IMG/VR virus record: IMGVR_UViG_3300044557_000292
Span: 64,001 to 128,000 of that record
Source: a virus
Lineage: Duplodnaviria > Heunggongvirae > Uroviricota > Caudoviricetes
Length of the DNA stretch: 64,000 bases
Strand: one strand, 5' to 3'
Part shown: piece after piece, positions 14,143-52,344 of the stretch
How the letters are laid out: every line of letters starts with the position of its first letter
How positions within the stretch are numbered: the stretch's first letter is position 1
The notes under the pieces: generated by a model
What the model was told of the DNA's origin: nothing
Database searches by the model: none
The model's input: only the letters and a program-made list of their open reading frames with translations
Translations under genes and position numbers: made by a program

Positions 14143-15258
14143 TTAGCCCATGATCATTGAGATGGAATCACCGGAGAAGTCAGAGTAACTCACCCTGGTG
14201 GGCTTGACACCATCTATGTTATTATTCCAAATCTCCGGTTCTTCCGTGAACACTCCGGCGCGGTGGAGCTCAACTACCGCCTTGGCATTCTTGCTCTTAA
14301 AGTTGGGATCATCAGATCTGTTCTTATCGATGACTGATTTGGGAAGCCATCGTCCACCGTTTCCGCGGCCAAGGGCAGTATAGTTGTCCATCCCGCGTTG
14401 ATATCGTGATTCTGCTCTACCTACGCTTACATCAGGATCAATGTCAACGAACACAGCCTTGATGTCTTTATAGCCGGACGATCTTAGAAGATCGATCTTA
14501 CTCTGGATCTTTTTAGCATTCCCCATGGTCCCATCAATGATGATGTTGATCTTCCTGGAGGCCGCTTCCATCAAGATCATCTTAGTTATGTCTGACGCCT
14601 CCTCATGGACTAACGGGCACGCCTCCATTGGTGTGAGACCCTTGATTCTCGGAATCTTACCCCTCCTGGCGAGCTCTTCCTTAATGTCATCGTTATTGAT
14701 GACAAGATATGATTTAGGATCATATCCGGCCATCTTAAGAACGGTGGTCTTACCCGCTCCCCCAAGCCCACCGGTAAACAGAACCTTGCCCTCACGCTTG
14801 ACGTTCTTAGCTGATTTCATTACCTTCTCCACAATGTCGAGATGAAGAGCTTGCCGTTCTTTATCATAAACACGAACGCCCTCCGGGAGGATTCTGGTGT
14901 GACTGCTCCTAGTGTCCTTATGAGCTTTCACGGCTGCGTTCGTCACGTCCTCAACGAACGCTTTACGGTAGTCACGATCTAGCTTGCTGATCTGAGTATG
15001 ATTCCTGATGGCGTCATTTAGGATTCGCTTCTGGTACTCAGCTCTTTCGACCAGGGATGGTGGAGTCCGTTTTGACAAAGCCTGCGTACTGGCGTTATTC
15101 TTATTGATCTGTTCTAGCCTATGTTCTAATTCCTTCCTGCTACCCGCAGTGAGGTGCTCTGATTCATTATGGATTCTACACGGTCTTCCTTCCTCGGTCA
15201 TGCATTGAGCCCATGACCCGTCGGGCTTCTGATGCCATGTTTCAGCAGGTCTCCTCAT
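14143..15258 (-). CDS. Zeta-toxin-family P-loop kinase with N-terminal Cys/His module
   Basis: FTGGLGGAGKTT, INNDDIKEEL, LVHEEAS, IIIDGTM, GGRWLP; start MRRPAETW after GGAG. Confidence 0.85.
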   Translation of the reverse strand: MRRPAETWHQKPDGSWAQCMTEEGRPCRIHNESEHLTAGSRKELEHRLEQINKNNASTQALSKRTPPSLVERAEYQKRILNDAIRNHTQISKLDRDYRKAFVEDVTNAAVKAHKDTRSSHTRILPEGVRVYDKERQALHLDIVEKVMKSAKNVKREGKVLFTGGLGGAGKTTVLKMAGYDPKSYLVINNDDIKEELARRGKIPRIKGLTPMEACPLVHEEASDITKMILMEAASRKINIIIDGTMGNAKKIQSKIDLLRSSGYKDIKAVFVDIDPDVSVGRAESRYQRGMDNYTALGRGNGGRWLPKSVIDKNRSDDPNFKSKNAKAVVELHRAGVFTEEPEIWNNNIDGVKPTRVSYSDFSGDSISMIMG

Positions 15259-15465
15259 GAGTTCACGCTCCGTTTGATACTTATAGTTTTTGCACGTTGT
15301 GAAAAGAAATCTAACTAAAAATGAACATGATGATAATACGATCAGCACCCACAGACTCTATCAAACAGATTGGTCAATTAGTACAGAAATAGTCTCTTGT
15401 AGAAGCATGGGCGCGGTACTATCTTCAATGATATTTTCATATTGCCATGTAAGGGAGGGATCATC

Positions 15466-16862: not shown

Positions 16863-17897
16863 GTGATGGGAATGAAGGTAAGAATCTCGATAAACGGTAA
16901 GTGGAAGATCACTCGTAAACAAGAACCGTGGGGTGATCGTGCATGGTCTAAAGAGCACCCCTCTATCTACAACGCTGTTCTCTTCTATTCCAATGACTCT
17001 TCCAACCAGTATGTTGGCGCGGCGTTGTATCCAGACTTCAAACCCTATCCATCAAAGAAGCTAGGAGACGATCATCTTATCAACGAGGCTATTTCCGAGT
17101 GTAGGGAAGAGCTTTCCTCTATGCTCACAGACGACATTGACTATGAGATGTCTCACGGGTATAAGAATCACGGACGTTCATCTGAAGATAATGATGATCA
17201 TGCGGATGGTGATCAGAACGTCTCTGAATCGAAGACGCATGATGACGCTGATCACTACGTTGGCGTTCCCTGGGTTGATCTTTCAAAGAACGCAGCCGGA
17301 CAGACCATGATGAATAGTCAAGACATAAAGCGTAATCCCGCTTCTCGTGAGAAGGGCTATAATGGCGAGTTGCAGACAGCGCGGGTTCTAAACCAGATCT
17401 GTGAACAGCACGATTGTTCCTATACGCTGAATAGCATCCCATTGAGGAATAATCTTGACCTTGATCATGTTCTCATCTGTAGGAAGGGAATCTTCATCAT
17501 TGATTCCAAGATGATCAATAAGGGGTATCTGGTGGACGGATCTTCCACATGGTACTGGGGTGAGACTGATCGTCGGGGATTCTATGATTGGGTAGAATAT
17601 GATGTTCAGAACGATCTCCTGAAGAATAGGGATCTCATCAAGCAGAGGCTCAGGGATCGGGGGTACGGGAACGTACCCGACACTCAGGGTCTTATTAGTC
17701 CGCTGATTGCCATGTGGGATGGCCAAGCCAGATTGAGATCATCAGCATCTGCCAAGCCGGCTGTTGAGTTTGTTAATGCTAATGATAATGGTCTTTATCA
17801 TGCTATTGATAGCAGTATTGATCACCCGTCTATACTAGAACCAGATCTTGTGGACGCTCTTTACTCGGATATGCGCCGCAGCACGTTCTGGCTATGA
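16863..17897 (+). CDS. NERD nuclease-domain protein
   Basis: GYNGELQTARVL...DLDHVLICRKGIFIIDSK. Confidence 0.85.
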   Translation: MMGMKVRISINGKWKITRKQEPWGDRAWSKEHPSIYNAVLFYSNDSSNQYVGAALYPDFKPYPSKKLGDDHLINEAISECREELSSMLTDDIDYEMSHGYKNHGRSSEDNDDHADGDQNVSESKTHDDADHYVGVPWVDLSKNAAGQTMMNSQDIKRNPASREKGYNGELQTARVLNQICEQHDCSYTLNSIPLRNNLDLDHVLICRKGIFIIDSKMINKGYLVDGSSTWYWGETDRRGFYDWVEYDVQNDLLKNRDLIKQRLRDRGYGNVPDTQGLISPLIAMWDGQARLRSSASAKPAVEFVNANDNGLYHAIDSSIDHPSILEPDLVDALYSDMRRSTFWL

Positions 17898-20823: not shown

Positions 20824-21609
20824 TTAATCGTTTTCAGTATCGTTTGATGATTCTTCTGACTTCCTTATCTCACGCCATCTTCTAAGAATTTCCTCAGGTC
20901 TAGATCCCAATCCCCAGAATATTGAGAGCCTTATGATGTTGAAGATGGAATCAACAGAATCATCATCTATTACCACTGGCATGTTCAATATTGATTCTTT
21001 GAGACTACTGATTGGAATAAACTGACCGTAATCTGATTGCTTGATGACTGTCAGTGGCCCCAGTACAGAGAAGACGCAGGCAATGGGAAAATTGATGAGC
21101 GAAGCTCTCATATTAAGCTCAAATACGCCTTGATGCAGAGTCATTGATTTAAGATATTTATTAACTTTAGACGTGCACTTGCGAATGTCATCTTGTGCAA
21201 CGATTCTATGCGTGCTGTTCTTGGAATCAATGATCATTACACCACGATTACAGATGAGAATATGATCTATGTCCCCATGATCGGAATAGGTAATCGAGTG
21301 CAAGACATAAGCATGACAATCGTCTGGCAATGATTCTAGTATCTTTGCGGTAGCCTTCTCACCATATATGCCAGCTTTGAATCGCTGTGCCCATGGACAA
21401 TTCTTGTCCTTGAATCTCATATAAACCTTGATAAGGTTCCTAGCTGGTCTATTGTCATTCAGATCAAATCTCTTTGGATGTTTGTCAAAACTTGACTGAT
21501 AGCATTGGAGGATATCTCTCAACTCATCTGCAGTAGAGTAAGGAGTCTTCAATAGACGATAGCCCAGAGTACTCAAGTGAATGGGGTAAAGATCTTTTGC
21601 TGGCTTCAT
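20824..21609 (-). CDS. NERD nuclease-domain protein
   Basis: GIYGEKATAKIL...GDIDHILICNRGVMIIDSKN; AT-rich. Confidence 0.85.
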   Translation of the reverse strand: MKPAKDLYPIHLSTLGYRLLKTPYSTADELRDILQCYQSSFDKHPKRFDLNDNRPARNLIKVYMRFKDKNCPWAQRFKAGIYGEKATAKILESLPDDCHAYVLHSITYSDHGDIDHILICNRGVMIIDSKNSTHRIVAQDDIRKCTSKVNKYLKSMTLHQGVFELNMRASLINFPIACVFSVLGPLTVIKQSDYGQFIPISSLKESILNMPVVIDDDSVDSIFNIIRLSIFWGLGSRPEEILRRWREIRKSEESSNDTEND

Positions 21610-27615: not shown

Positions 27616-28668
27616 TCATGCTTCATGATCATCTGAATCATCGTCATCAGCAAACGTGAAGTCATTTAAGTCAATAACGTCGTCATCTGTACTGTCACCG
27701 TCGCCAGCACTGGAATCGCCACTCGTCTCCGGTTCTGCGGGCGACTCATCAACGCCGATCTTCGCCGCGTCGTCAGGCTCATCATTGGCGGCCTCCTGGA
27801 GAGCGTCCATACTGTTATCCCACGCATCCTCCGGTCGATCATTACCTCCAGTCTCGCCCCTCAACTCGGGTCGACCAATATGATAAGACTCGTCTTCCTC
27901 ACGGGTCACTCCCTCCTGGTACCCCTGTGCTTGATGATTGCTGCCATCACTTGCTATGGTCTCAGGTGCCTTCAAGCCGGGCATGTCCGTACTGATGCCC
28001 TGCTCGGCCATCTTACGCTCGTGCTCAGCGTTGATCCGCTCCTTCTCAGCCCGGGTGCGGGCGATGTACTTACTGTTATCAACACCCTGCAGGTTATCAA
28101 GATTACCGCCGCCCGTGACCCCGTCAAGCCCGCGGTCGATGAACGCAGATGGACCCGTTGTCTTCGGAGTGCCGTCACGATTGAGCCCACGCCTGTCAAG
28201 CCATCCATCAATCCACTCCTGGGGCGCGAAGTACACCTGCAGACGCTGCTCATGCCCGTACGTGCTGATGACAGCACGACCCTTCGGGTTCCCGGGGGTC
28301 TTCACGGCAGATCCAGACCCGAGGGTCATCGCTGAGGCCGTCATGTTCATGTTCCCGCACGCAAGACGCATTCCAAGGTTCGCCTTCAGCTCTCCCGGGA
28401 GAAGTTTCGCATCCGGCCTCTGAGTCGCAATAGAAAGGTGAACTCCAGCCGCTCGACCAAGACGCGCTATAGATCCAATCATAGATTGCGCTTCACCCTT
28501 CAAGGCCTGCTGGGCTTTAGCGTCATCACTGTTATGGGTGGGAACACCGTTCTTACCAATCAGGAACTCATGGTTCGGTGAGTCTACCCTAATGCAGTAT
28601 ATGGCTTCATCCGGAACATCTACTCTCTTAATGTCGGCAAGAGTAAACAATTCTTCATCATTCTTCAT
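27616..28668 (-). CDS. Fractured FtsK/SpoIIIE ATPase, last piece: split intein C-half (46 aa) + C-terminal extein
   Basis: IYCIRVDSPNHEFLIG...VPTHN|SDD, then IARLGRAAGVHLSIATQRPDA...LKANL...PGNPKGRA; acidic tail. Confidence 0.92.
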   Translation of the reverse strand: MKNDEELFTLADIKRVDVPDEAIYCIRVDSPNHEFLIGKNGVPTHNSDDAKAQQALKGEAQSMIGSIARLGRAAGVHLSIATQRPDAKLLPGELKANLGMRLACGNMNMTASAMTLGSGSAVKTPGNPKGRAVISTYGHEQRLQVYFAPQEWIDGWLDRRGLNRDGTPKTTGPSAFIDRGLDGVTGGGNLDNLQGVDNSKYIARTRAEKERINAEHERKMAEQGISTDMPGLKAPETIASDGSNHQAQGYQEGVTREEDESYHIGRPELRGETGGNDRPEDAWDNSMDALQEAANDEPDDAAKIGVDESPAEPETSGDSSAGDGDSTDDDVIDLNDFTFADDDDSDDHEA

Positions 28669-28862: not shown

Positions 28863-29402
28863 ATGAGTCAACCATTTGATCCTAATAGTATTATATATAC
28901 TCATATTTGCGCTTTATGCGGGAAGACCTTCACTGATCACCATAATACAACAAAATTTTGTAATGGAAGTCATTATAGAACATGTGAAGCCGTCATTGAC
29001 GGGAAAGTATGTGGAAAGAAATTCAAGCTTAAGAACGCTACTAGTAGAACGAGAACATGTTGTAGATCACATGCGGCCATACTTACTCATACGAAAGCTG
29101 CTGATGCCGCCCGATCAAAATCAATTAAACATAGTAAGAAATTTGATGAATCTATGAAGAAAAGATCCAAGTATCTTGATGAGAATCCTGATAAGGATAC
29201 TAGAGCTGGATCTGAAAAATTCAGAAACAATCTTATAGATAAATACGGTACTACAAATACGTCAAATATCGATAAGGTAAAAAGGAAAAGGATAGATACA
29301 ACGAAATCTAGGTATGGAGTTGACTATGATATGCAAGATTCTATTATCAAGGCAAGATGGCTAAAATCATTTACTAAAAAAGAACGTCATAATGAAAAAT
29401 GA
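28863..29402 (+). CDS. Zn-finger/KYG-repeat basic protein, probable DNA-binding part of a homing endonuclease
   Basis: CALCGK, CEA...VCGK, DKYGTTN, SRYGVDY; markedly AT-rich. Confidence 0.65.
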   Translation: MSQPFDPNSIIYTHICALCGKTFTDHHNTTKFCNGSHYRTCEAVIDGKVCGKKFKLKNATSRTRTCCRSHAAILTHTKAADAARSKSIKHSKKFDESMKKRSKYLDENPDKDTRAGSEKFRNNLIDKYGTTNTSNIDKVKRKRIDTTKSRYGVDYDMQDSIIKARWLKSFTKKERHNEK

Positions 29403-30087
29403 GATTAATTATCAAGAGAAACTAAGAAAGAATATACGCGATAAGGTGGCCTTATCTAAGTGGAAATATCCTCGTGAATGTAAAAACAAATTTTTCGATT
29501 CTAACAAAAATACCGATATTAAAGACTATTTGTCTATGATCTTTCACGATACTCAAGATTTCATTCACGACGAGGTCATACCAAATGAAATCTATTCTCA
29601 TAGAGGAATCAATCAATTCAGAAGGTTTAGACCAGATATGAGAAGTGAAGATCTAGGTTTAATCGTAGAATTTGATGGAGTAAATCATTACTCATCCCTT
29701 CACGTTGTTTTATCTGATAAGGATAAAGATGAATATTTAAGATCAGCGGGTTATAAGATTGTTCGTATTCCTTACTTCGTAGTTTTATCTCCTACGTCTA
29801 TTATGAGATTATTCGGAGTAGATGTGAATGACAGATTAAAAGATACTGGAGTTCTTGATTATGGTCTATTTGATAGTCCTGATAATGATTACGGATTAAA
29901 GATTTGCCCTCAATCATTCTGTCATCTTGGAATGATGAAATTCTTTAATGACGTAAAAGCTATGACTAAACATGAAAAGACTGTACTTGATAATGATCTT
30001 AATCTAGTTTCATTGTTTAATAAATATGGTATACCTTCTATCCCAGAAATATATCAAAATGAATATAATGAGATTATTAATAATTAA
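29392..30087 (+). CDS. Vsr/DUF559-like endonuclease (putative homing endonuclease catalytic part)
   Basis: FRPDMR...LIVEFDGVNHY...DKDKDEYLRSAGYKIVRIPY. Confidence 0.8.
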   Translation: MKNEINYQEKLRKNIRDKVALSKWKYPRECKNKFFDSNKNTDIKDYLSMIFHDTQDFIHDEVIPNEIYSHRGINQFRRFRPDMRSEDLGLIVEFDGVNHYSSLHVVLSDKDKDEYLRSAGYKIVRIPYFVVLSPTSIMRLFGVDVNDRLKDTGVLDYGLFDSPDNDYGLKICPQSFCHLGMMKFFNDVKAMTKHEKTVLDNDLNLVSLFNKYGIPSIPEIYQNEYNEIINN

Positions 30088-35831: not shown

Positions 35832-36392
35832 ATGAGTGTGAACGAAGCGGTAAGAGACGCAATATGGGTGAAGCCGTACGAACGAGCTGGAGTACATGTC
35901 CGCGGGTACTGGAAGAGTCCCAACGTGGGTAAGATTCATGACGAGTCTCCTAACGTAGATCAACGCGAGCAGATTCTTGGAAGGTCAACTGCAATTGATC
36001 ATTACGCCCGCCGTCCAATGATTCGAGACTACACGTTCGAGGGCGTGAAGTTCAGGGTTGATGGGGCCACGTCGTCCGGTAGAGCTATCATAGGGGCGTT
36101 CACATCAGTCGCAGAGCATCTTCACCATGTGGATGGGGTGTTCCCATGGATGAACGATGAGGAGCTTGATGAGAAGATCAGGAATGAGAACATCGCCCTC
36201 ACGAATCCGCATAACGATGCTGATTCCATTAGAAGGAAGATCGGCGCGCTTGAGGAGGAGTACTCTGATAGGACTCATGAGAAGGTTCGAGATCATATGG
36301 ATGAGGTCATTACCGAGCTGTCGCGCCATAAGGTGAAGTATCAATCCCTGCGGTCTGTTCTCAAGACCATGCTTGAATCATATAAACTGTAA
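35832..36392 (+). CDS. Divergent GATWV-tag family protein
   Basis: DAIWVKPYERAGVHVRGYWKSPN; GAGGAG SD. Confidence 0.8.
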   Translation: MSVNEAVRDAIWVKPYERAGVHVRGYWKSPNVGKIHDESPNVDQREQILGRSTAIDHYARRPMIRDYTFEGVKFRVDGATSSGRAIIGAFTSVAEHLHHVDGVFPWMNDEELDEKIRNENIALTNPHNDADSIRRKIGALEEEYSDRTHEKVRDHMDEVITELSRHKVKYQSLRSVLKTMLESYKL

Positions 36393-36452
36393 CAGGGCCC
36401 CCGTCTCTTTAATAGTATAAGAGGCTCTGTTAACCGCGATCACGCTTAGCGT

Positions 36453-36767
36453 TTACGCCCAGGTACCGTTCCTCTTGGCCTCATCAAGGAGACGATCATG
36501 CTCTTCCTCAATCCTAGCATAATGTTCTATATCTTCATCATTGGCGTTCTTCCACTCAGCTATGGCAGCATCGTCAACAGCGCGATTCGCATTATGGACT
36601 ATTCTTGACAGGTATGACGCCCTTCTAGCAGGACCAAACTTGTATCCAGACGTTATAGTTCTCAGTCGACCGAATAGGTATGCTAGCGAAGCAACGCCTG
36701 ATATGATGGCCGCCAGCCCCGTTACTGCTAAGCCGCCCCTAATGATCTTTCCTATTGTCCTCATCAT
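36453..36767 (-). CDS. Small membrane-anchored hypothetical protein
   Basis: 104 aa, one hydrophobic segment, GAGGGG SD. Confidence 0.65.
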   Translation of the reverse strand: MMRTIGKIIRGGLAVTGLAAIISGVASLAYLFGRLRTITSGYKFGPARRASYLSRIVHNANRAVDDAAIAEWKNANDEDIEHYARIEEEHDRLLDEAKRNGTWA

Positions 36768-36858
36768 AACCCCCTCGACTTTCGTTCAGAATGATAGTTA
36801 ACAGTTACACTGTTATTATAACGGTAATAAGATATGTGGAAAGAGTAAGCTATAGTAA

Positions 36859-37818
36859 TCATTCCGCCTTATTGATCTCATTGAGGGCGTTGCCCACAGA
36901 CGACCTCTTGAACTTGATGTTCTTACGCTCTGACTCTGGGGTGGACTCCCATATGCTCATGAGCTGATCTGTGGTCACGGTCAAAGGCTCATCATCCCCA
37001 CCACTGGGGTACACTGTCCACGAGTGCTGCGCACCACACGTGAAGTCCTCGGTGGAATCATCTGAATCCCTCTTCACCGTGACCCTATAAGCCTCACTCG
37101 TTAACGGCTCGTACTTCTCGATCACACGATGCCATTCCCCGTCATCACCGACCACATGATCGCCAACCTTAAGCTCACCTAGATTCCTCCTGCCCTCAAG
37201 ACTGGGGACGATCGTGGCGGCAGCAAGCGCCTTGGCGGGTGATGACGTGTCGAGCAGCTCGCCGGCCTCGTCGACCATGACCATGAGAGCGCTACCGGCG
37301 TTCTCCATGTCGAGGAAGTTGTTATGGCCGGCTGCCTCCATGTCCCCATACCTGTCCATCATGGTCTCCTGGGCGAAACGGAGAACCTCGATCGCGTCCT
37401 CCAGGGTCGTGGCCACACCGATGATCGCGTTCGTGTACGGCTTGTAGGCAGAGAGCTCCACACGCTTTAGATCAATGGCAAGCATCTTGATCTCTTTAGA
37501 ATGCGTGATGATATGATCAACGATGTTACGCTGGGCGACGCTCTTACCGCCTCCAGTGTTATGGGTTAGCAATACCGAATCTGACGATTTGTCACGGAGT
37601 TCATATGAATGTGTTTTGTGTTCTACTCGGATGCACCTGACCGGTTCTTGTGGAAGATCATCAACAGATTTGATTCTCATCCATCCATGGCTGATGGAAG
37701 ATGGAATCAGGTAACGATCATATCCATCTTCAACAAGCTTCTTCATGTCAATGACTCTGACGCGCTTAAGATTACGATCCCATACCGTCCAGAGGTGTTC
37801 CTCATCGCACTTAATCAT
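36859..37818 (-). CDS. Fractured FtsK/SpoIIIE ATPase, middle piece: intein C-half (87 aa) + 109-aa extein + intein N-half (123 aa)
   Basis: CDEEHLW...VRCIRV...LLTHN|TGGGKS...AIDLKRVEL...MVMVDEAGELL...PAK|ALAAATIVP...LKVGD...CGAQHSW. Confidence 0.93.
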   Translation of the reverse strand: MIKCDEEHLWTVWDRNLKRVRVIDMKKLVEDGYDRYLIPSSISHGWMRIKSVDDLPQEPVRCIRVEHKTHSYELRDKSSDSVLLTHNTGGGKSVAQRNIVDHIITHSKEIKMLAIDLKRVELSAYKPYTNAIIGVATTLEDAIEVLRFAQETMMDRYGDMEAAGHNNFLDMENAGSALMVMVDEAGELLDTSSPAKALAAATIVPSLEGRRNLGELKVGDHVVGDDGEWHRVIEKYEPLTSEAYRVTVKRDSDDSTEDFTCGAQHSWTVYPSGGDDEPLTVTTDQLMSIWESTPESERKNIKFKRSSVGNALNEINKAE

Positions 37819-37929
37819 ATGTGCAAGATATCATTGGGTGATATTCCCGTTAACGGTTGCAACGTCTGTCGCATAAACGTTTTATTTTTATGACGTAAGA
37901 TATTGTTTCATCTGTAATAGAATGGTATA

Positions 37930-40779
37930 ATGTATTGTATGTTGACTTTATTAGAATCTAAGCCCTTAGCATCTAAGTTATGGGATAAGACCAAGAATAG
38001 CACGCCATTGGAATCAATTGATTCCAACGATGATAAGGAATATTATTGGACATGCAAGAATCATGGTCATAGCTTCAAGATGTCCCCAAAGAATATTCCC
38101 AATGATTCCAGATTCTGTCCCTTTCATACGCTTTTGCTTATACCAGGTCTTAATGATCTACAAACGGTAGATCCTTCGATAGCCAGTTGGTTTGCTGAGG
38201 ATCTTAACGGCGTGCCAGCAAGCAGAATCAGGGCGAATTCAGGGAAAAGGTTCTGGTGGCGCGACCCCAGGCATCATGATCATGTTTGGCAGTCCTCTCT
38301 TTCCAATAGACGAGGGCAACGATCTGGTTGCCCAATATGTAGCGGTCATGTTCTTCTATCGGGAGTGAATGACATAGCCACAATGGATCCAGTTGAGTCA
38401 GAAATGCTGGATACGGAAAAGAATCACGGGTTGACTCCTGATAAGATTCGATATGGATCTAATGCGAAAATATGGTGGAAATGTTCTAGGGGCCACTCGT
38501 TCCTCAAATCGCCCTCATGGATGAGGAATAATGGTGGTAAGTGCGAGCAGTGTGAGATGGAAGACACTTTATCGATAGCGGCTATGTACCCGGATTTAAT
38601 TCCTTGGTTTGATGATGGTTGCAATAAAGATTCCGCCGATCATACCCCGGCAAAGACCATGATGAAAGTTCATTGGAGGTGTTTTAAGGGTCATGCGTTC
38701 ACCATGAGGCCGTATGATATAGAACATGCTTCTCATAAGTGCGTAAGATGTTATGGGAAGGTGAAGAAACGTGTTGTTGAGGGGATAAACGATCTTGCAT
38801 CTCAACGTCCTGACTTATTAAAGCGGTGGGCTTATGATCGTAATAAAGATGATCCCAAAACGGTCAGGATTACTTCTAATAAAGAGTACTGGTGGACGTG
38901 CAAAGAACATCCTGATCATTTGTTCAAGTGCTCTGTGAAGAGAATGAGCTCTCTCGCTAAGAATCAGTGCCCGTATTGCTCTGGAGAAGAGACTCTAGTT
39001 GGGTTCAATGACCTCTTCACCATGATTCCAGAGTTCAAAGGAATATGGGATTACGAGAACAATGCGATTGATCCATCAACAATCCGCGTACAAACTAGAG
39101 GTACTGGAGCTTGGTGCAATAATGATGATGTTCTTTCCTGGAGGTGTTCTAAGGGTCATCACTGGAAATGCAAGATTTCAGATCTTCGAAGAGGCAATCA
39201 CAAGCATTGTCCATACTGCTTGGGAAAGATTATGCTTCCTGATCATTCTAATAGCATTGCGTCAGATTATCCAATTGTTCTTAAGGAATGGTTTTCTGAT
39301 AAGAATGGCGACCCCAACAATATAACTACAGGATCTTCGATAAGAAGCAAGATCTATTGGAAATGCTCTAATTGCGGAGGAATATGGAAGACGCGACCGT
39401 TCTACTATATTAACAACGTATCTTTTAAGCATGACAATAACTGTCCTTATTGCCACGATCGGGAGTTACTGACCGGTCTCAACGATCTTGCCACCAGGCG
39501 GCCAGATCTGATTCCAATGTGGTCAGAGAAGAATGACAAGGGTCCAGGTGAGTACATCTTCAACAGTCATGAAGAGGTGATATGGAAGTGCCCGGCTGGT
39601 CATCATCGTGAATGGAGAGATTCCATTCGCAATGAGGTCAACGGAGGGTACACTGCTGGATGCTACGTCTGCAAGAATAAGGTCTATTCGCTTGGAGAGA
39701 ACGATCTTGCTACGCTGCGCCCAGATCTGGTAAAAGAATGGGCGTATGATCTCAATAAGACCAGACCAGAAGATCATATGATCAATGATAGAACGCCAAT
39801 TATGTGGAGGTGCAAGAATGGCCATGTATGGACTTGTTCTATTTCCGGAAGAGCATTTGATCATAATGGGTCTTGTTTCAGATGCGCATCTGGTCTTCAT
39901 ACGAGTGAACCAGAGAATGAGATTACCAGTTATCTAAGATCTATTCTTGGACATGATGAGATAATCGTTAATAACGATAGAAAGATTCTTGGAGGACCCG
40001 AGCTTGACATTTATCTTCCTAACCGTCATGTCGCTATTGAATATAATGGTCTCTATTGGCATTCGGTTCTAGTAGACAATCAATTCAATAAGACTCGTCA
40101 TTATGAGAAATACACGTCTTGCAAGCAATTGGGAATCCGCCTCATACAGATCTGGGAAGATCAGTGGCTCGATCACCCCGATATTGTTAAGGACTCATTG
40201 AGAGCAATACTGAAGCCTGAGACCATGATTAAGGAGAACGCTCGGTCACTTCATGTCGAAGAACCAGAGAGATCATATGCTCAGAAGTTTCTTGATGAGA
40301 ATCACATTCAAGGGCATGCGGGAGGATGCTCATACCTCGCTCTCGTCGATGATCATCATATGATTAAGGCCTGCATGGCTTACAGGGTGAATGATTCCGA
40401 GTTCAATCTTGTTCGATATGCGTCCGAGCTAGGTCATAACGTAAGAGGTGGATTGAGCAAGCTTTTAAAGCATTCGATAAGCATCGTGAATAAAGACGAT
40501 AAACGGGTAGATCATGTGGTGACATTCAGTGATAACACGATTAGCGAGGGTGCGTCATATGAGAAGATAGGATTCCACATTGATAAGGAAATTCCTCCAG
40601 ATTACTCTTACGTGAGTGGGAAGCATCGTTTCCACAAGTTCTTGTATCGTAAGAAGAGATTCCGTGATGATCCTGATCTTAAGTATGATCCAACTGCTCA
40701 TGAGTCAGAGCTTGCTGAGATGAATGGTCTTAATCGTATCTACGATGCGGGTAAGATCCGCTGGAGGATGAACGTCTAG
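37930..40779 (+). CDS. Zinc-ribbon repeat (DUF4379-like) protein with C-terminal Vsr-like/Hef-like endonuclease; putative free-standing homing endonuclease
   Basis: About 10 WWxC..GH.....CPYC...G.NDL repeats; ELDIYLPNRHVAIEYNGLYWHS, LIQIWEDQW, FLDENHIQG, RIYDAGKIRW. Confidence 0.88.
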   Translation: MYCMLTLLESKPLASKLWDKTKNSTPLESIDSNDDKEYYWTCKNHGHSFKMSPKNIPNDSRFCPFHTLLLIPGLNDLQTVDPSIASWFAEDLNGVPASRIRANSGKRFWWRDPRHHDHVWQSSLSNRRGQRSGCPICSGHVLLSGVNDIATMDPVESEMLDTEKNHGLTPDKIRYGSNAKIWWKCSRGHSFLKSPSWMRNNGGKCEQCEMEDTLSIAAMYPDLIPWFDDGCNKDSADHTPAKTMMKVHWRCFKGHAFTMRPYDIEHASHKCVRCYGKVKKRVVEGINDLASQRPDLLKRWAYDRNKDDPKTVRITSNKEYWWTCKEHPDHLFKCSVKRMSSLAKNQCPYCSGEETLVGFNDLFTMIPEFKGIWDYENNAIDPSTIRVQTRGTGAWCNNDDVLSWRCSKGHHWKCKISDLRRGNHKHCPYCLGKIMLPDHSNSIASDYPIVLKEWFSDKNGDPNNITTGSSIRSKIYWKCSNCGGIWKTRPFYYINNVSFKHDNNCPYCHDRELLTGLNDLATRRPDLIPMWSEKNDKGPGEYIFNSHEEVIWKCPAGHHREWRDSIRNEVNGGYTAGCYVCKNKVYSLGENDLATLRPDLVKEWAYDLNKTRPEDHMINDRTPIMWRCKNGHVWTCSISGRAFDHNGSCFRCASGLHTSEPENEITSYLRSILGHDEIIVNNDRKILGGPELDIYLPNRHVAIEYNGLYWHSVLVDNQFNKTRHYEKYTSCKQLGIRLIQIWEDQWLDHPDIVKDSLRAILKPETMIKENARSLHVEEPERSYAQKFLDENHIQGHAGGCSYLALVDDHHMIKACMAYRVNDSEFNLVRYASELGHNVRGGLSKLLKHSISIVNKDDKRVDHVVTFSDNTISEGASYEKIGFHIDKEIPPDYSYVSGKHRFHKFLYRKKRFRDDPDLKYDPTAHESELAEMNGLNRIYDAGKIRWRMNV

Positions 40780-41639
40780 TCCCTGGTAAGAGATTCCTCG
40801 TACTCATCCTCCGCATCTGCAAGTACGTCTGCCGTCCATTCCGGGACGTCGTCCCAGGGATAGGGTTCTAGGGTGAGGCCATACAGGCAGTCTGCCTGCA
40901 TGATTTGGCTCACACCGTCAACCCTGGTGGGCCCATCTGGTCCAATGACCATATCACCGATCTTAACCCCGCCCATCGTCGTCTCTGTTCCATCGGCCAG
41001 TGGGATGATCGTGTCGAGGGTGAGTGGTCCTCCGCAGTTATGGGTCGGCACGCCGCTCTTCATGACCTCATCGTACTCATCCTTGTCAACGCGATACTCG
41101 ACACCGTTGCTCGATGGGATCGTCTTCAAATCGGGCTGATCGGTATTCGACCAATTGCCCTTCTGATCAGTATGCTCGAGTAGGCTAGAGTCATTGCTAG
41201 ATGCGAGTAGGAATGTGTGCGTCGGTGAGTCAACCCTAAGGCACTGCACCTTGATCTTGTCAGCATCATTGTCATCAACGAGCAGGCAACTCTTCACCAT
41301 CCAATGCTTGACTGCACCATCCGGCGTCATGATCGGCGCGAGGATTGGGTGATGACCCCTGGTAGTCCACGTGGCGATGTCCCCCGTGCTCGCCTCAGTC
41401 TCCCCCCTGTATGCTAGGGGGACGTCTGACGATGATGGGTCAAGTGGCCATACGTGACCAGCGTCAGCATTGTATGAATCCACATGACCATACGTGTCAA
41501 CGAACGTGATCCTGTAAAGCTCGCTCGGAGTCTCAGCACTAGTCTTGGAGAGGACTATCGAGATTCTTCCATCGGCATCAATAGTCCTATCGCCAGTCTT
41601 CACGTCAGCAAGACGCTTCGGCATCATCATCCATCTCAT
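40776..41639 (-). CDS. Fractured FtsK/SpoIIIE ATPase, micro-extein piece: long intein C-part + CGG + short intein N-part
   Basis: KRLADVKTGD...ADAGHVW...VQCLRVDSPTHTFL...VPTHN|CGG|PLTLDTIIPLADG...VKIGD...LYGLTL; start placed at the ATG 6 nt after CATATCTT (ORF track start 41675). Confidence 0.88.
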   Translation of the reverse strand: MRWMMMPKRLADVKTGDRTIDADGRISIVLSKTSAETPSELYRITFVDTYGHVDSYNADAGHVWPLDPSSSDVPLAYRGETEASTGDIATWTTRGHHPILAPIMTPDGAVKHWMVKSCLLVDDNDADKIKVQCLRVDSPTHTFLLASSNDSSLLEHTDQKGNWSNTDQPDLKTIPSSNGVEYRVDKDEYDEVMKSGVPTHNCGGPLTLDTIIPLADGTETTMGGVKIGDMVIGPDGPTRVDGVSQIMQADCLYGLTLEPYPWDDVPEWTADVLADAEDEYEESLTRD

Positions 41640-41766
41640 GTCATGAAGATATGAGTCTTCAATCATTCTATGCATATGTGATCACGTGTGTCCATATTGA
41701 ATTCGATGATAGATTACATGTGTTATTAATGGTGTCTGATCTTGATTGATTATAATGATGGAGGAT

Positions 41767-42558
41767 ATGATGGGTGATCATGGGGAGCCACCGGAGGAGG
41801 GCGCTACCTGGGTGGAGGACTACGAGCGCGCGGGCGTCCACGTCTCCGGGTACTGGCGTGGTAGGGATGGGCATAAGATCTATCAGGTGGAGGAGTCGGG
41901 GCCACGGTCCCTTGGAGGCGGCTTTGACCCTGGGGATTCTAACGTTCTTAGGAAGAAGAGACCTGGCGAGCGTGACTGGGATCGCGTGAACGTGAGGATC
42001 GAGAATCTTATCCATAAGGAAGGTCGTCTATCGAAGGGGGACGTTGAGGGTCTTAAGGACACGACCGTACAGCTCATCATGTCAAAGCGTAAGATTAACA
42101 GGGGTACCTATGATAACGCTCGCGTCGCATACGAGATAGATCCAGACTCTGCCAGCATGGATGAGTACGTTGCCCTCAGTCTTTACTCCCACATCACCGC
42201 CGTCAAACTAGCTGAGTCAAAGAAACTTGACAAGAACAAGGTTGGTCTCCTCATTCATAATGGTGGTGATCTAGCCATTGAAGCCCTGGCGTCTAATCCA
42301 GATCTCCCAGACGACTGCTGGGAGATGGTTGAGTCGCAGTGCAGCTGGAATGAGGGCGTGTGCGCAAGACTTGCCTGCAATCCGTCATGGCCTAACGCTA
42401 ATGCAGCCGGGAGGCTGTATGCGAGTGGACAATGGGGTGAGATACCGGCCATGGGCGTTACGTTATTAGAACGCGGTGATCTTGATGATGACGTGAAGCG
42501 GGGTATCTTGAAGATGAATGATCAGTGGAATAAGGATCGTCGCTGGTATAATGGTTAA
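41767..42558 (+). CDS. GATWV-tag family protein with LRV/HEAT-like helical body
   Basis: MMGDHGEPPEEGATWVEDYERAGVHVSGYWRGRDG; ALASNPDLP, LACNPSWP. Confidence 0.87.
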   Translation: MMGDHGEPPEEGATWVEDYERAGVHVSGYWRGRDGHKIYQVEESGPRSLGGGFDPGDSNVLRKKRPGERDWDRVNVRIENLIHKEGRLSKGDVEGLKDTTVQLIMSKRKINRGTYDNARVAYEIDPDSASMDEYVALSLYSHITAVKLAESKKLDKNKVGLLIHNGGDLAIEALASNPDLPDDCWEMVESQCSWNEGVCARLACNPSWPNANAAGRLYASGQWGEIPAMGVTLLERGDLDDDVKRGILKMNDQWNKDRRWYNG

Positions 42559-42717
42559 TCCCGTAAGACGGGGCAATGATTCCTAATATGACTACTCAAC
42601 AGAATCATATCCTGATGGTCCAGATGGCTATCACTCTAACACTCTTTAATCGGCCAGCATGAGATAAGAGGATAGACGCGAGATTGCAAGAATGAAACAC
42701 TGGGTACCATACAATGC

Positions 42718-43434: not shown

Positions 43435-44091
43435 TCACTGCTCTTTACGCAGTATAGCATTCTTGATGAGTGTCATGGTCGTGTCACTGCTGGATATCTC
43501 ATCCGCGCACTTCTTGAGCAGCTCGTGAATAGAGCCATCCTCGTCTCTAACATTCCTCTTATAGTTGATCTGATGCTCTAGTGATGACCATGCGTCCATT
43601 GCGATCGTCCTGATTTGAATCTCCGCCTTGATCTTCCCATCACCTGGAATCGTGACGATAAGGTGATAACTCCTGTAACCACTAGGCTTGGGACGGGCTA
43701 TGTAGTCTTTCTCCTCGATGACTGAGCCTCCCCTTCCTACGATAAGATCTTTTATGATTCCAACGGCGTCATAGACGTTGTCCGTGAAGCTGCACACGAC
43801 GCGAACACCAACCACATCATGCATCATGTTAACGGCCGTGCGCCCATCTAAACCCATATTGTTTTTTGAGAGCTTCTCCATCATTGACGACGGATCTTTG
43901 ATCCTACCATTCACGTACTCAATCGGCTCGACGCCGGGCTCCTCACCCCTGCCCATCTGGTCAGAGCAGTCGCGGAGTATCTTCATAAGCCATTGGTACG
44001 CTGAGGTCAACATTTGTAATGATTCACCATAATATTCTTCATAGGAAGTCCTGTCCCCAATGATTCCATCTGGAGCGGCCATTGTGATCAT
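43435..44091 (-). CDS. Small alarmone (p)ppGpp synthetase (RelA_SpoT domain, RelP/RelQ-like)
   Basis: GRIKDPSSMMEKL, DVVGVRVVC, KDYIARPKPSGYRSYHL, EIQIRTIAMDAWSSLEH. Confidence 0.95.
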   Translation of the reverse strand: MITMAAPDGIIGDRTSYEEYYGESLQMLTSAYQWLMKILRDCSDQMGRGEEPGVEPIEYVNGRIKDPSSMMEKLSKNNMGLDGRTAVNMMHDVVGVRVVCSFTDNVYDAVGIIKDLIVGRGGSVIEEKDYIARPKPSGYRSYHLIVTIPGDGKIKAEIQIRTIAMDAWSSLEHQINYKRNVRDEDGSIHELLKKCADEISSSDTTMTLIKNAILRKEQ

Positions 44092-49273: not shown

Positions 49274-50539
49274 ATGCCTGATAACTCATTCCTGAAAGAC
49301 CCATATACTAGGGATACGATCTTCTCCCTCATGGCTGGGATAAAAGCTCATAATAGTCAGATGATTGTTGGCAATCCTGGTCTTGGCAAGTCAGCGTTAG
49401 TTAAGATGCTGGCTCGGGAGATGCTTCACGCTGACATGATAACGATCATAGGATCACAAAAGGAACCTCAGGACATCACTGGCTTCCCGAGGATGGTCGA
49501 CAAACCACTCACGGAAGGCAATAAGATCAGTATCACCAAGTATGCTATACCCGAATGGGAGTTCATCATCCTTACCAGGAAGGTCGTCCTCCTATTCCTC
49601 GATGAGTTCAGCAATTCTACACCGCCAGTACAGTCGTCAATGCTCCAGATACTTAACGAGAGGGAATTCCCTGATGGCATGAAGGTTCCAAAGGAGACCG
49701 TCATCATAGGGGCTATGAACCCGGTGGAGACCGCCGCTGATGGATACGAGCTCGGACTTCCCGTGTCTAATCGTCTCAAATTCATACCGTGGGAGCCATC
49801 ATTCGAGTCATGGGCGTCTGGAATGCTTTCCAATTGGGGTCACCCTGGGGACATTAGTGCTGACGAGATGTACTGGAGGAAGAAGATCGTAGCATTCCTC
49901 AACAAGAACAGGAAGCTCGTGTACAAGCTCCCTGAGAAGAATCAGAAGAGTGATCCGAATATCGTGTATCGTTTGAACGACTCGCCGGCTGAGAATGATA
50001 TCTTCAAGAAGGCCTACCCAACGAATAGGTCGTGGACTAATCTTGCCAAAGAGCTTCCGTACTGCAGGTACTCTGAAGGCGCCGGGAAATATGCGCCATC
50101 ACTCATCAGCAAGTCGGCTAACGGGCTGGTCGGTTATGAGGCGGCGAAGAGCTTCATGGAATTCCTATCTGTAAGCCAGACGAACATACCAACCCCAGAA
50201 CAGGCCTTATCGCATCCTGAATCAATACCGTACAAGTCACTTGACTTCAATGAGCTCGGCAAGCTTTATGAGAATTGCATCACGTATGCTGGCAAGAATG
50301 GTGACAGGGCTATCAAACGTCTCTTCATGCTCACCGAGCAGTACATTAAGAACGGCCAGTCGGGAATGTATACCATGCAGCATGCTCCTGCCGTCAAGGT
50401 CATGAGGATGATACCCGAGGGTAAGGAGGCTGTTAGAAAACTGGACAAGATGGTGTCTTCTAGTAACGTTGGAGAGATCTTGTCGGGATGGGGTGATCGT
50501 AATAATGACGTTACGAGCCAGGCAACGGATATAATCTGA
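49274..50539 (+). CDS. MoxR-like AAA+ ATPase
   Basis: GNPGLGKS, EPQDITGFP, LLFLDEFSN, IIGAMNP, NRL, PTNRSW. Confidence 0.92.
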   Translation: MPDNSFLKDPYTRDTIFSLMAGIKAHNSQMIVGNPGLGKSALVKMLAREMLHADMITIIGSQKEPQDITGFPRMVDKPLTEGNKISITKYAIPEWEFIILTRKVVLLFLDEFSNSTPPVQSSMLQILNEREFPDGMKVPKETVIIGAMNPVETAADGYELGLPVSNRLKFIPWEPSFESWASGMLSNWGHPGDISADEMYWRKKIVAFLNKNRKLVYKLPEKNQKSDPNIVYRLNDSPAENDIFKKAYPTNRSWTNLAKELPYCRYSEGAGKYAPSLISKSANGLVGYEAAKSFMEFLSVSQTNIPTPEQALSHPESIPYKSLDFNELGKLYENCITYAGKNGDRAIKRLFMLTEQYIKNGQSGMYTMQHAPAVKVMRMIPEGKEAVRKLDKMVSSSNVGEILSGWGDRNNDVTSQATDII

Positions 50540-52344
50540 TGCTTAGGAGGAGAAGAGATCGCTCATATGATCTCACTGATGATGAGGAAAAGATATGGAT
50601 CGCATCAGTGAGCGGAGCAGCGTTAGCGTCATCACTTCTACGTGAGACCATGATGCTACTAAGACCCTACAAGTCGAAGATTGTTGATGTGGCAGGTATA
50701 GACGATGATTGGAGGGTCGCTATTGGTCCAAAGTTCTTCACGTACCGTCAGGCCGAGCGTGAGGCAATCGTAATCCATCTTTGCCTTCACGCCGTGTGCA
50801 ATTACTCGAATCGTTCACGGAATGCGGGCCAGAATGACTCCAGCATGTCGAGGATCGCTCAGGATCTTGAGATCAATCAGATGGTCATTACGCTGAGCAG
50901 GGTGAGGCTGCCCGCGGGATCGGTTATCCCGAAGATAAGTGGAGCGGAGCATAGTGATCTTAGGGTAATTGACGTACCTGTTGGTAAGAGCATGGAACAG
51001 TATTACCAGATACTATCGCATGATTATGGAGGCAATGCTGACGACAGCAGTCAAGACGCTTCTGATTCTAATCAGCCTACTCCTATGCAAGCTAGTCAAA
51101 GTCAATCTGATAGGAACGATCAGCCACAATCAGATCGTGAGCAATCTTCAAGTGAACCGTCAAGTCGTTCACAGAAACCATCAGGTCAATCAGAAGAAAG
51201 TGATAGGAATAAAAAGCAGGATAAGAGACCTGGTAGCGCACCTCCTGAAGATCGGGAGGATTCGAACGATAGGGGAAACGGGGCTGTCGATGACTCCAAA
51301 TCTGATGATCAGAATGACAGCAATGAGCAATCTGATTCTTATGGTCAGGCTAATCCTAATGATCAATCTAATAGATCTAATCAGCCTAAGCCTGGTGGTG
51401 ATGAAGATGCGGGTAATAGATCTGAAGATGGTGGTCGTGATGAATCGAAGGACGATGATCCTGGCGACACCTGGTCGATGACTGATGATGAAGATGAGAG
51501 CTCGTCAGATTCTGATAGCAGTCAATCAGAAAAGAATCACGATGTCTGTGCTAATGCGTCTGAGTCTGACATCTCGTCGGAAGCAGATCAGGCGGGCGTA
51601 CCGAAGTCTCGTAATGACCAGAAGGTGACAGCTACATCTAAGATGATAGAGCAGGCTAATCACATAGCTGCCATTACTGGCAGAATGCCCGGACTGGGCT
51701 CAAAGGACAAGCAGTTCGCGGTCGACGTGTCTAAGGCCGCGAGCCCACCAGATCTTGATTGGAGGAGGAAGCTGCTGGCCGTCAGTCAAGATCTCATGAG
51801 CAAGCAGGCGTACAAGAAGACTGATTATTCCTTCAAGAGGGTGAATCGACGAGGATCAGCATTCATGAGGGATGTAGCCTTCCCGAGCATCATTGGATAC
51901 AATCCTAAGATCATGATGGGGATAGACACGTCATACTCCGTGTCTCATGATGAGCGCCAGATGGCATCGATTGTTAGGAATGCTCAGGAGATCATGAAGA
52001 CTGTCACTAGGGGCGGTAAGGGGGCGTTCAAAGCGTTCTGCGTTGATACTCATCTTAAGGACACGCAGATCGTTGATAATGTTGACGATCTTAACCTTAC
52101 CGGCGGTGGTGGGACAGACATGAGCCCAGCGTTCGAGTATATTAGCAACATGAATCGTAGGGATAGGCCGGACGTGTTCATCTTGGCCACAGATGGAGAG
52201 TTGAGTGAATCCACGTGGAATAAGTGCGCTAAGGCTTGGCCTAAGAATGTGAAGGTCATCATTCTGATAACAGACTCTTACTACATGGACAAGATTCCGA
52301 AGTGGCTCTTTGATGAAGCGTCGGTTATCGACATCTCCGGGTGA
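50539..52344 (+). CDS. DUF2201-type VWA partner protein (peptidase-like N-domain, disordered linker, VWA)
   Basis: HLCLH (degenerate HExxH), AQDLEINQ, GIDTSYS, GGGGTDM, ATDGE; coupled to the ATPase gene. Confidence 0.88.
   Translation: MLRRRRDRSYDLTDDEEKIWIASVSGAALASSLLRETMMLLRPYKSKIVDVAGIDDDWRVAIGPKFFTYRQAEREAIVIHLCLHAVCNYSNRSRNAGQNDSSMSRIAQDLEINQMVITLSRVRLPAGSVIPKISGAEHSDLRVIDVPVGKSMEQYYQILSHDYGGNADDSSQDASDSNQPTPMQASQSQSDRNDQPQSDREQSSSEPSSRSQKPSGQSEESDRNKKQDKRPGSAPPEDREDSNDRGNGAVDDSKSDDQNDSNEQSDSYGQANPNDQSNRSNQPKPGGDEDAGNRSEDGGRDESKDDDPGDTWSMTDDEDESSSDSDSSQSEKNHDVCANASESDISSEADQAGVPKSRNDQKVTATSKMIEQANHIAAITGRMPGLGSKDKQFAVDVSKAASPPDLDWRRKLLAVSQDLMSKQAYKKTDYSFKRVNRRGSAFMRDVAFPSIIGYNPKIMMGIDTSYSVSHDERQMASIVRNAQEIMKTVTRGGKGAFKAFCVDTHLKDTQIVDNVDDLNLTGGGGTDMSPAFEYISNMNRRDRPDVFILATDGELSESTWNKCAKAWPKNVKVIILITDSYYMDKIPKWLFDEASVIDISG

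Follow-up and report, generated by a model that had tools for sequence, protein, structure and literature searches.

In the literature, as far as its text is available, natural split inteins are described as uniting two fragments, and among class 3 inteins a single naturally split one is named. That intein, AceL NrdHF, was reported as the first of its kind in a paper whose accessible text describes no split form among 1701 class 3 inteins (PMC7891396); by the available text it is a single intein in two pieces, with a typical 98/48 split, an MCT triplet and an endonuclease gene between its halves. The fractured genes of Dassa et al. 2009, as their accessible text presents them, also have a free-standing gene for a Vsr-like endonuclease between the two halves of an intein; there the fractured gene is in two parts, with all three frames on one strand (PMC2677866). 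In the PolB16 intein, which begins with Ser1 and has class 1 hallmarks, a short N-half docks on a near-complete C-half. Closely spaced P-loop intein sites are known from mycobacteriophage TerL1-a and -b, which lie one residue apart (PMC5050341), and from haloarchaeal MCM (PMC10643990); these inteins are contiguous, and two occupied neighbouring sites that are both split are not described in the available text of either source. Engineered tandem trans-splicing, by the accessible text of two reports, uses a middle piece composed of a C-half, a short peptide and an N-half (PMC12707363; PMC7210297).

How does the locus described here compare? The window that we analysed is a 64,000-nucleotide stretch, bases 64001-128000 of a 419,707 bp record with terminal repeats that is filed as a virus. 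Its gene at 41639-40776 (-) is, judging from sequence comparison and modelling, likely the second of four pieces of one FtsK/SpoIIIE-family ATPase and likely serves as an obligatory trans-splicing adaptor. The exteins of the four ORFs tile unbroken relatives in register, and their six intein halves form three complementary class 3 pairs, inteins a, b and c. The class 3 signature, the natural split and the endonuclease gene between halves are shared with AceL NrdHF, whose structure (6zgq) matches the model of piece 2 with Z 11.1 (rmsd 2.9 A, 135 aligned), whereas here three split class 3 inteins lie in one protein, with the full WCT triplet, two atypical split sites and Pro1 starts. Site b resembles the fractured genes, but the protein is in four parts, with the endonuclease gene in opposite orientation and one piece at a distance of 103 kb. 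Intein a is like PolB16 in that a short N-half would dock on a near-complete C-half, and unlike it in being class 3, with ~11 conserved N-half residues and a C-extein of three residues; the shortest N-half a among relatives has 19 aa (P0092). As in TerL1 and MCM, several intein sites fall within Walker A. The class 3 mycobacterial DnaB mini-inteins (6bs8, 6riy, 6rix) give the best sequence match (E 1e-13) and the best fold match (Z 14.2), but are contiguous and reside in a helicase, whereas the present inteins are split and reside in an FtsK-type ATPase. Tandem trans-splicing constructs, as the accessible texts describe them, and SICLOPPS constructs are laboratory systems of three segments, in contrast to this natural arrangement of four segments with a three-residue insert. 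SICLOPPS constructs have the order C-half, short peptide, N-half, like piece 2, and the SICLOPPS structure 5ol6 is among the fold matches.

In the open-access literature, as far as its text could be seen, a search turned up no natural case of split inteins joining a protein from at least three genes; FtsK-family genes with a split intein and genes for a three-residue extein were likewise not encountered. The parts are of known kinds; apparently new is their combination, in which three split class 3 inteins link four genes in a chain and a middle piece contributes three residues.

The adaptor gene

The reverse complement of 41028-41036 is TGC GGA GGA, which encodes Cys-Gly-Gly in frame, and these residues sit between ...GVPTHN and PLTLDT... 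in the ORF 41675-40776 (-). Reading the window at these positions bears out the initial annotation, which had placed Cys-Gly-Gly between the end of one intein and the start of the next. That annotation had also described a gene of ~290 aa, about 99% of it splicing machinery, and this holds at 287 aa and 1.0% extein from the likely start. The real start is likely the Met at 41639, since only that Met has the gene-start motif of the element and relatives begin there; a start at 41675 was rejected on the same grounds.

Piece 2 then comprises the C-half of intein a (41037..41639 (-), 201 aa, with block B H-x-W, block F Cys and a C-terminal THN), the CGG extein (41028..41036 (-)), whose Cys is the +1 nucleophile of intein a and whose final Gly occupies position -1 of intein b, and the N-half of intein b (40776..41027 (-), 83 aa: Pro1, a ~55-aa core and an acidic helical tail). 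Piece 2 and the neighbouring endonuclease gene have overlapping stop codons, which lie in one CTAG palindrome (window 40776-40779).

The gene-start motif ATATCTT lies at 41646..41652 (-), six bases before the ATG at 41639. ATATCTT-N6-ATG occurs at 20 sites in the genome, 17 of which open frames of at least 100 aa, against 3 of 50 for ATATCTT at other spacers of 2-13; pieces 2, 3 and 4 each carry it. ATATCTT is likely the -10 box of a leaderless promoter; a sigma-70 scan was not above chance (12 versus 9.9). The motif recurs across the whole genome and at piece 3 of a related locus, L002; its sites in the window are at 21144, which lies inside a longer ORF, 28668, 37818, 41639, 49191, 49274, 57579 and 60995.

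Register and conservation of the three residues

The CGG extein would supply the first Gly of Walker A (GxxxxGKS), and the motif is complete only with it: piece 3 reads ...LLTHN-TGGGKS, and unbroken relatives are in register, as had been proposed from the sequence. We collected 51 longer relatives of the piece 3 extein, 15 of them with an unbroken Walker A. The initial annotation had proposed comparing intein-free homologues for these residues; all 15 have exactly three, x-G-x, between the hydrophobic strand and TG[GS]GKS. Cys comes first in 10 of the 15, and CGG itself occurs in two, P0038 and P0046, which read HILI-CGG-TGGGKS.

Among proteins P0001-P0093, 36 bear intein a, and exactly CGG stands between THN and the Pro-Leu of the next intein in 35 of them (one being that of the window itself). 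The 36th, P0065, has no intein b and runs THN-CGG-TGSGKS. A wide profile search returned 2813 proteins at E 0.001, the best 150 of which were considered and 21 in full. Among these best 150, P0148 and P0152 have an unsplit intein a, lack b and c and read THN-CGSTGGGKS, while P0140 and P0141 have an unsplit intein a followed by CGS, N-half b and a stop. Both junctions are fixed because there are relatives without intein b or with an unsplit intein a. The same best 150 of 2813 include further adaptors, P0136, P0137 and P0139 with CGG and P0138 and P0156 with CGS.

Piece 2 has 25 matches of similar length: itself, P0065 and 23 stand-alone proteins of the same layout, some of which are on short contigs and could be cut; L002 is a complete copy at the DNA level. 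In an alignment of 24 at 35-77% identity, H74, W76, C145 and T211-N213 are invariant in 24/24, as is PTHN-CGG-PL. The Gly codons differ across three loci (GGA GGA, GGT GGG, GGT GGC) while the residues do not vary, so the constraint acts on the protein. Window positions 36000-42600 are represented by 81-92% of sampled words in nine further sequencing runs, all from bioreactor sludge of 2021 and perhaps one campaign. The CGG layout is not a product of chance or of assembly artefact.

Related loci were sought in several collections. Metagenome contigs yielded three loci, two of them useful, with the piece-2 alignment as query and none with piece 2 alone; viral contigs yielded none for any of three queries (piece 3, P0065 and the piece-2 alignment); genome contigs gave two weak partial matches. 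With piece 3, PLSDB plasmids gave no match and phages one weak match. In L002, piece 3 is upstream of piece 2, with an unrelated gene between them. Elsewhere the pieces of a relative were taken as co-located from contigs of equal size (349703, 491046, 111568 and 69405).

The Walker A of this family has a third intein site, GK|S, in 18/51 relatives, which makes three intein sites within nine P-loop residues. In a related clade, the intein at GK|S is split and its C-half is very short (~40 aa where read), and longer relatives such as P0181 have large contiguous inteins there; the proteins concerned are P0018-P0029, P0031-P0036, P0181, P0165, P0147 and P0159. Also among the best 150 of 2813 are proteins that, by our reading of their sequences, are terminase-like, with two to four large class 3-like inteins and short exteins of ~30 residues between them (P0145, P0150, P0162, P0163, P0166, P0167, P0180, P0182 and P0193).

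Pieces 1, 3 and 4 and the endonuclease genes

Piece 1 lies outside the window, at G000:C1:208552-209979 (+), ~103 kb from piece 2 and on the other strand, so that the four pieces are spread over ~117 kb and both strands. It was the sole ORF over threshold (E 3e-10) in a search with a profile from the N-termini of the 15 relatives with an unbroken Walker A. Its 430-aa extein has hydrophobic stretches at residues ~1-25 and ~150-190 (hydropathy window), the feature of an N-terminal membrane anchor, and ends in TTPMSLI; the N-half of intein a follows, 45 aa with Pro1, ~11 conserved residues (PLDVDTMVWTL) and an acidic tail. All 17 piece-1 matches (one being piece 1 itself) end PM.L[IV]-PL..T.V[WY], with 19-90 residues after the junction, and piece 1 aligns straight through this junction to unsplit P0148.

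Piece 3 begins with the C-half of intein b (37558..37818 (-), 87 aa), which has its own ATATCTT-N6-ATG, starts at block B (CDEEHLW) and contains the block F Cys and THN, with Thr at +1. Its 109-aa extein (37231..37557 (-)) runs from TGGGKS, the rest of Walker A, to Walker B (MVDEAGE); it matches PF01580 over the cut-off (E 1.6e-9) and is identical to P0148 at 61/105 positions. The N-half of intein c (36859..37230 (-), 123 aa, Ala1, block B H-S-W) is split at the usual endonuclease site and aligns to positions 1-131 of the unsplit intein c of P0005 with probability 99.8. Piece 4 opens with the matching C-half (28531..28668 (-), 46 aa, with its own start motif, block F Cys, THN and Ser at +1), which aligns to positions 145-190 of unsplit intein c with probability 98.9. 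Its 304-aa extein (27616..28530 (-)) holds the rest of the FtsK-type motor (ARLGRAAG, ATQRPD) and an acidic tail, is identical to P0148 at 73/128 positions and matches phrog_1358 (E 4e-21). At site c, 14+21 = 35 residues separate Walker B from ARLGRAAG, as in P0152 and, by a count made by eye, in P0148; the pattern read three intein-free relatives correctly, and in these the distance is 34.

All four frames are intact, the exteins are 57-58% identical to unbroken P0148, and together they amount to 430 + 3 + 109 + 304 = 846 aa. Six intein halves are available for three pairs, and a search of the 420-kb genome with two Pfam models and with profiles of these inteins gave no further halves.

Between the halves of intein b, on the strand opposite to pieces 2 and 3, is a free-standing homing-endonuclease-like gene (37930..40779 (+), 949 aa) with zinc-finger repeats and a Vsr-like nuclease (PF14311 E 3e-68; phrog_559 E 1e-87; phrog_3339 E 7e-80). 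Much of this gene is without cover in run X14, an observation that carries no weight. Beside piece 4, two ORFs (28863..30087 (+)) show weak similarity to separate parts of the same endonuclease families (phrog_3339 E 1e-4, phrog_559 E 5e-6; DUF7487, DUF559) and probably represent a decayed endonuclease gene at split site c. No endonuclease gene was seen by eye among the ORFs that flank piece 1.

Intein class, split sites and structure models

All three inteins carry class 3 signatures in their sequences. Position 1 is without a nucleophile, being Pro in a (17/17), Pro in b and Ala in c; across 38 proteins, position 1 of intein c is Ala in 35 and Ser in 3. The WCT triplet, defined in the accessible text of PMC7891396 (Trp N3:12, Cys C2:4, Thr C1:5), is present in all three inteins in the window. 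By pattern among P0001-P0093, its W, C and T are found in 35/36, 36/36 and 36/36 for intein a, 16/17, 17/17 and 17/17 for b, and 38/38, 26/26 and 26/26 for c. Each intein ends in His-Asn with a nucleophile at +1 (THN|C, THN|T, THN|S), and the catalytic Cys and THN end are kept in 36/36 C-halves of a and 17/17 of b. Annotation likely overlooks these inteins because the Pfam intein models miss them (PF14890, no match; PF07591, E 0.03).

The AlphaFold model of piece 2 (mean pLDDT 79.8) matches, over residues 16-214, residues 11-146 of the class 3 MchDnaB-1 intein 6riy with Z 14.2 (rmsd 1.7 A, 120 aligned), and C-half a is, by this model, a Hint domain minus its first ~10 residues. N-half b profile-matches residues 2-55 of the class 3 DnaB inteins 6bs8/6riy, and the Hint fold of b and c is assigned by sequence. 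In hhalign comparison with the reference, N-half a reached probability 0.1 and was thus unplaced, and C-half b was placed by its last 44 residues alone; N-half a and block B of C-half b were therefore positioned through unsplit relatives and by eye. The unsplit intein a of P0152 has a Thr/Asn/Ser/Asp-rich insert of ~300 aa between blocks F and G, and piece 2 has a ~50-aa variable insert at the same place.

The split sites move along the fold, from after residue ~11 in a, to just before block B in b, to the usual site in c. Because the cuts are staggered from a to c, the forward skips 1-3, 1-4 and 2-4 would leave a gap in the domain. We infer that every pairing that skips a piece would give an incomplete intein fold, and that this is the structural reason why piece 2 would be obligatory. 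An intein in three parts was considered and rejected, as each pair covers the domain (where the positions of N-half a and of block B of b come from unsplit relatives and from visual reading).

The modelled complex comprised piece 2, the C-terminal 61 residues of piece 1 and the N-terminal 100 of piece 3. Residues 430-451 of piece 1 are predicted on the first strands of piece 2, beside His74 and Cys145. The docking score was 0.67, against 0.10 for the best of three controls, a score that halves of known fold can also pass by likeness to solved inteins; the docking mark is reached by 116/157 solved and 2/215 mismatched pairs. Docking runs agree in at least 56% of contacts, and partner pLDDT is at least 49. 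The complex model supports binding of piece 1 to piece 2. With pieces 1 and 3 kept and piece 2 replaced, the modelled score was 0.00. Direct splicing of pieces 1 and 3, named at the outset as the outcome that would make the adaptor dispensable, appears structurally implausible, both from this control and from the halves involved, a tip of ~11 residues and a half that starts at block B. Comparison and modelling together favour the earlier suggestion of an obligatory adaptor between pieces 1 and 3.

History of the inteins

How might such an adaptor have arisen? Among relatives, intein a is unsplit or split, b is absent, split or unsplit, and c is absent, unsplit (26/38 proteins) or split (12/38). 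The initial annotation had two inteins invading and both later splitting. For a this history is in keeping with the unsplit forms in P0140, P0141, P0148 and P0152; for b it probably does not hold, since the only unsplit forms nest deep among split ones and have an acidic linker of 119-176 aa. In a 30-row tree of intein a, one branch (99/94) parts unsplit from split forms. Unsplit b is deeply nested as sister to split P0071 (97/94), with similar nesting in a 49-row tree, and its 119-176 extra residues are rich in D, E, S and G. Such a long linker fits re-fusion of neighbouring genes. Unsplit b was rejected as the ancestor for its nested position and long linker and, by its sequence, looks like a later re-fusion.

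Intein b is absent three times beside split-b sisters, and one such protein, P0065, is sister to the clade of the window (96/86). The mobile form of intein b is probably a cassette, already split, built around the homing-endonuclease gene. The cassette (N-half b, endonuclease gene, C-half b) would have homed into a P0065-like gene, and its entry three codons after the end of intein a would have cut out the adaptor gene in one step. Entry of a split cassette is the simplest account of the origin of the adaptor; repeated loss of b fits the tree equally well.

The extein trees do not fix the deep order. A piece-1 tree of 28 rows does not separate the unsplit-a group and two split-a groups in order, and another of 30 rows has at its base P0092 and P0093, two proteins on contigs equal in size to those of split-b genes. 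The piece-3 tree, built from 30 of 33 chosen rows, does not place unsplit b. All trees are of subsets of the proteins, and P0012, with its duplicated stretches, was excluded.

Proposed assembly and its alternatives

In the assembly that we favour, the ~11-residue tip of piece 1 would dock as first strand into the near-complete Hint domain of piece 2, the block F Cys would attack the Ile-Pro bond, and the extein would move to Cys+1. The N-half of piece 2 and the C-half of piece 3 would then join Gly to Thr+1, and the N-half of piece 3 and the 46-aa half of piece 4 would join Lys to Ser+1. The product would have ~846 aa and the loop LI-CGG-TGGGKS. The main risk is that a glycine-rich extein of three residues between two bulky inteins may hinder one or both reactions.

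Could the intein halves instead clamp the pieces together as a non-covalent scaffold? There is a precedent in a fragmented phage ribonucleotide reductase assembled by interaction domains of a mobile element, as the accessible text describes it (PMC3045599), and our complex model speaks to docking, not to chemistry. We nevertheless consider such a scaffold improbable: the catalytic Cys and THN are kept in 36/36 C-halves of a and 17/17 of b, and two domains of ~140-200 aa within a nine-residue P-loop would, from the P-loop fold, be expected to block its closure.

A little less probable still is that the pieces are relics of a gene disrupted by selfish elements and now in decay, yielding no active ATPase. 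The scatter of the pieces over ~117 kb and both strands, beside endonuclease genes of which one is apparently decayed, would suit a relic, as would the second FtsK/coupling-type ATPase in the genome. Against it stand the four intact frames, exteins 57-58% identical to P0148, a layout that recurs down to 35% identity, Gly codons that vary while the residues do not, and start motifs on three pieces.

We give equally little credence to piece 2 acting on itself in the manner of SICLOPPS, with the strand of its own N-half b in the groove of C-half a and with auto-inhibition, cleavage or cyclic CGG as outcome. The two N-halves do have similar initial strands, Pro-Leu-x-x-x-Thr, and the model of piece 2 by itself is confident (mean pLDDT 79.8), but the strand of piece 1 is still predicted in the groove when the N-half of piece 2 is present in the model, and a nine-membered cyclic tripeptide is strained. 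Least credible is rejoining at the DNA or RNA level, by excision of the endonuclease gene or an intron, with inteins splicing in cis: relatives have fused forms of b and c, but piece 1 is 103 kb off on the other strand, piece 3 of L002 is upstream of piece 2, pieces 2-4 have their own start motifs, the window contains no Rfam family, and four runs, with patchy contigs, show no joint of pieces 2 and 3. None of these alternatives accounts together for the invariant catalytic residues, the independent start motifs and the scrambled gene order.

An extension of the trans-splicing model is speculative, and we hold it to be rather unlikely. The host protein would have domesticated its parasites into an ordered, self-proofreading assembly line, in which three orthogonal, staggered split inteins act as a four-input AND gate and the adaptor gene, with its own promoter and exposed catalytic cysteines, is the switch for the P-loop and for transfer of the element. 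If true, the adaptor would also be a SICLOPPS-shaped protein of natural origin and a ready kit for placing three residues of choice in an active site.

The element and the function of the ATPase

What kind of element encodes this protein? Three tailed-phage terminase and capsid families were tried (PF03237, PF03354, PF05065), and none was over cut-off in the element; nor was there a TrwC relaxase match over cut-off. The element encodes a VirB4-type AAA_10 ATPase (E 1e-48) and two T2SSE pilus ATPases, which together point to a conjugative element, and the record is likely a giant conjugative, plasmid-like element. The VirB4-type ATPase is seemingly in two genes 15 kb apart, with no intein (G000:C1:206357-207811 (+), equivalent to L001:6357-7811, and 223038-224264 (-)); the 408-aa gene is the AAA_10 domain alone. 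The 479-aa VirB4-like protein, without a Pfam match, heads the gene cluster of piece 1 and is presumably, by likeness, the N-terminal half of VirB4.

Several cargo genes lie in the window (14143-15348 (-), 16863-17897 (+), 20824-21609 (-), 43435-44091 (-), 49274-52344 (+)); they include a small RelA/SpoT protein, a MoxR ATPase followed by a likely VWA partner and, we assume, a zeta-toxin-like P-loop protein and two NERD-like nucleases. At least seven otherwise unrelated genes share a leader of ~35 aa near their start, with the core W-V-x-x-Y-x-R-A-G-x-x-V-x-G-Y-W (window 23061, 24746, 32412, 35826, 41746, 47219, 48326). Those at 41746, 35826 and 32412 match no Pfam family, and contigs from other runs also end at the 41746 copy.

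Unbroken relatives of the four-piece ATPase match PF01580 with E 1e-12 to 1e-21. The KOPS-reading gamma domain of chromosomal FtsK was sought on piece 4, with no such Pfam family at E up to 1, which makes the protein FtsK-like and not a chromosomal FtsK. The ATPase is probably anchored in the membrane and translocates DNA, in all likelihood for the element's transfer or segregation; conjugation is a plausible role. The second FtsK/coupling-type ATPase of the genome is a separate 916-aa P-loop protein, which we take to resemble a coupling protein; given its presence, that role is not required of the four-piece ATPase.

Implications

For protein engineering, the locus offers three probably orthogonal split inteins, an N-half of ~11 residues, short enough for peptide synthesis, a split position ahead of block B and a middle segment of three residues that would be tolerated. 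In the element, four genes and three trans-splicing reactions would go into one protein, and a whole gene would be kept for three active-site residues. Since its relatives keep nearly every intermediate, the origin, spread and re-fusion of split inteins would be testable in one family.
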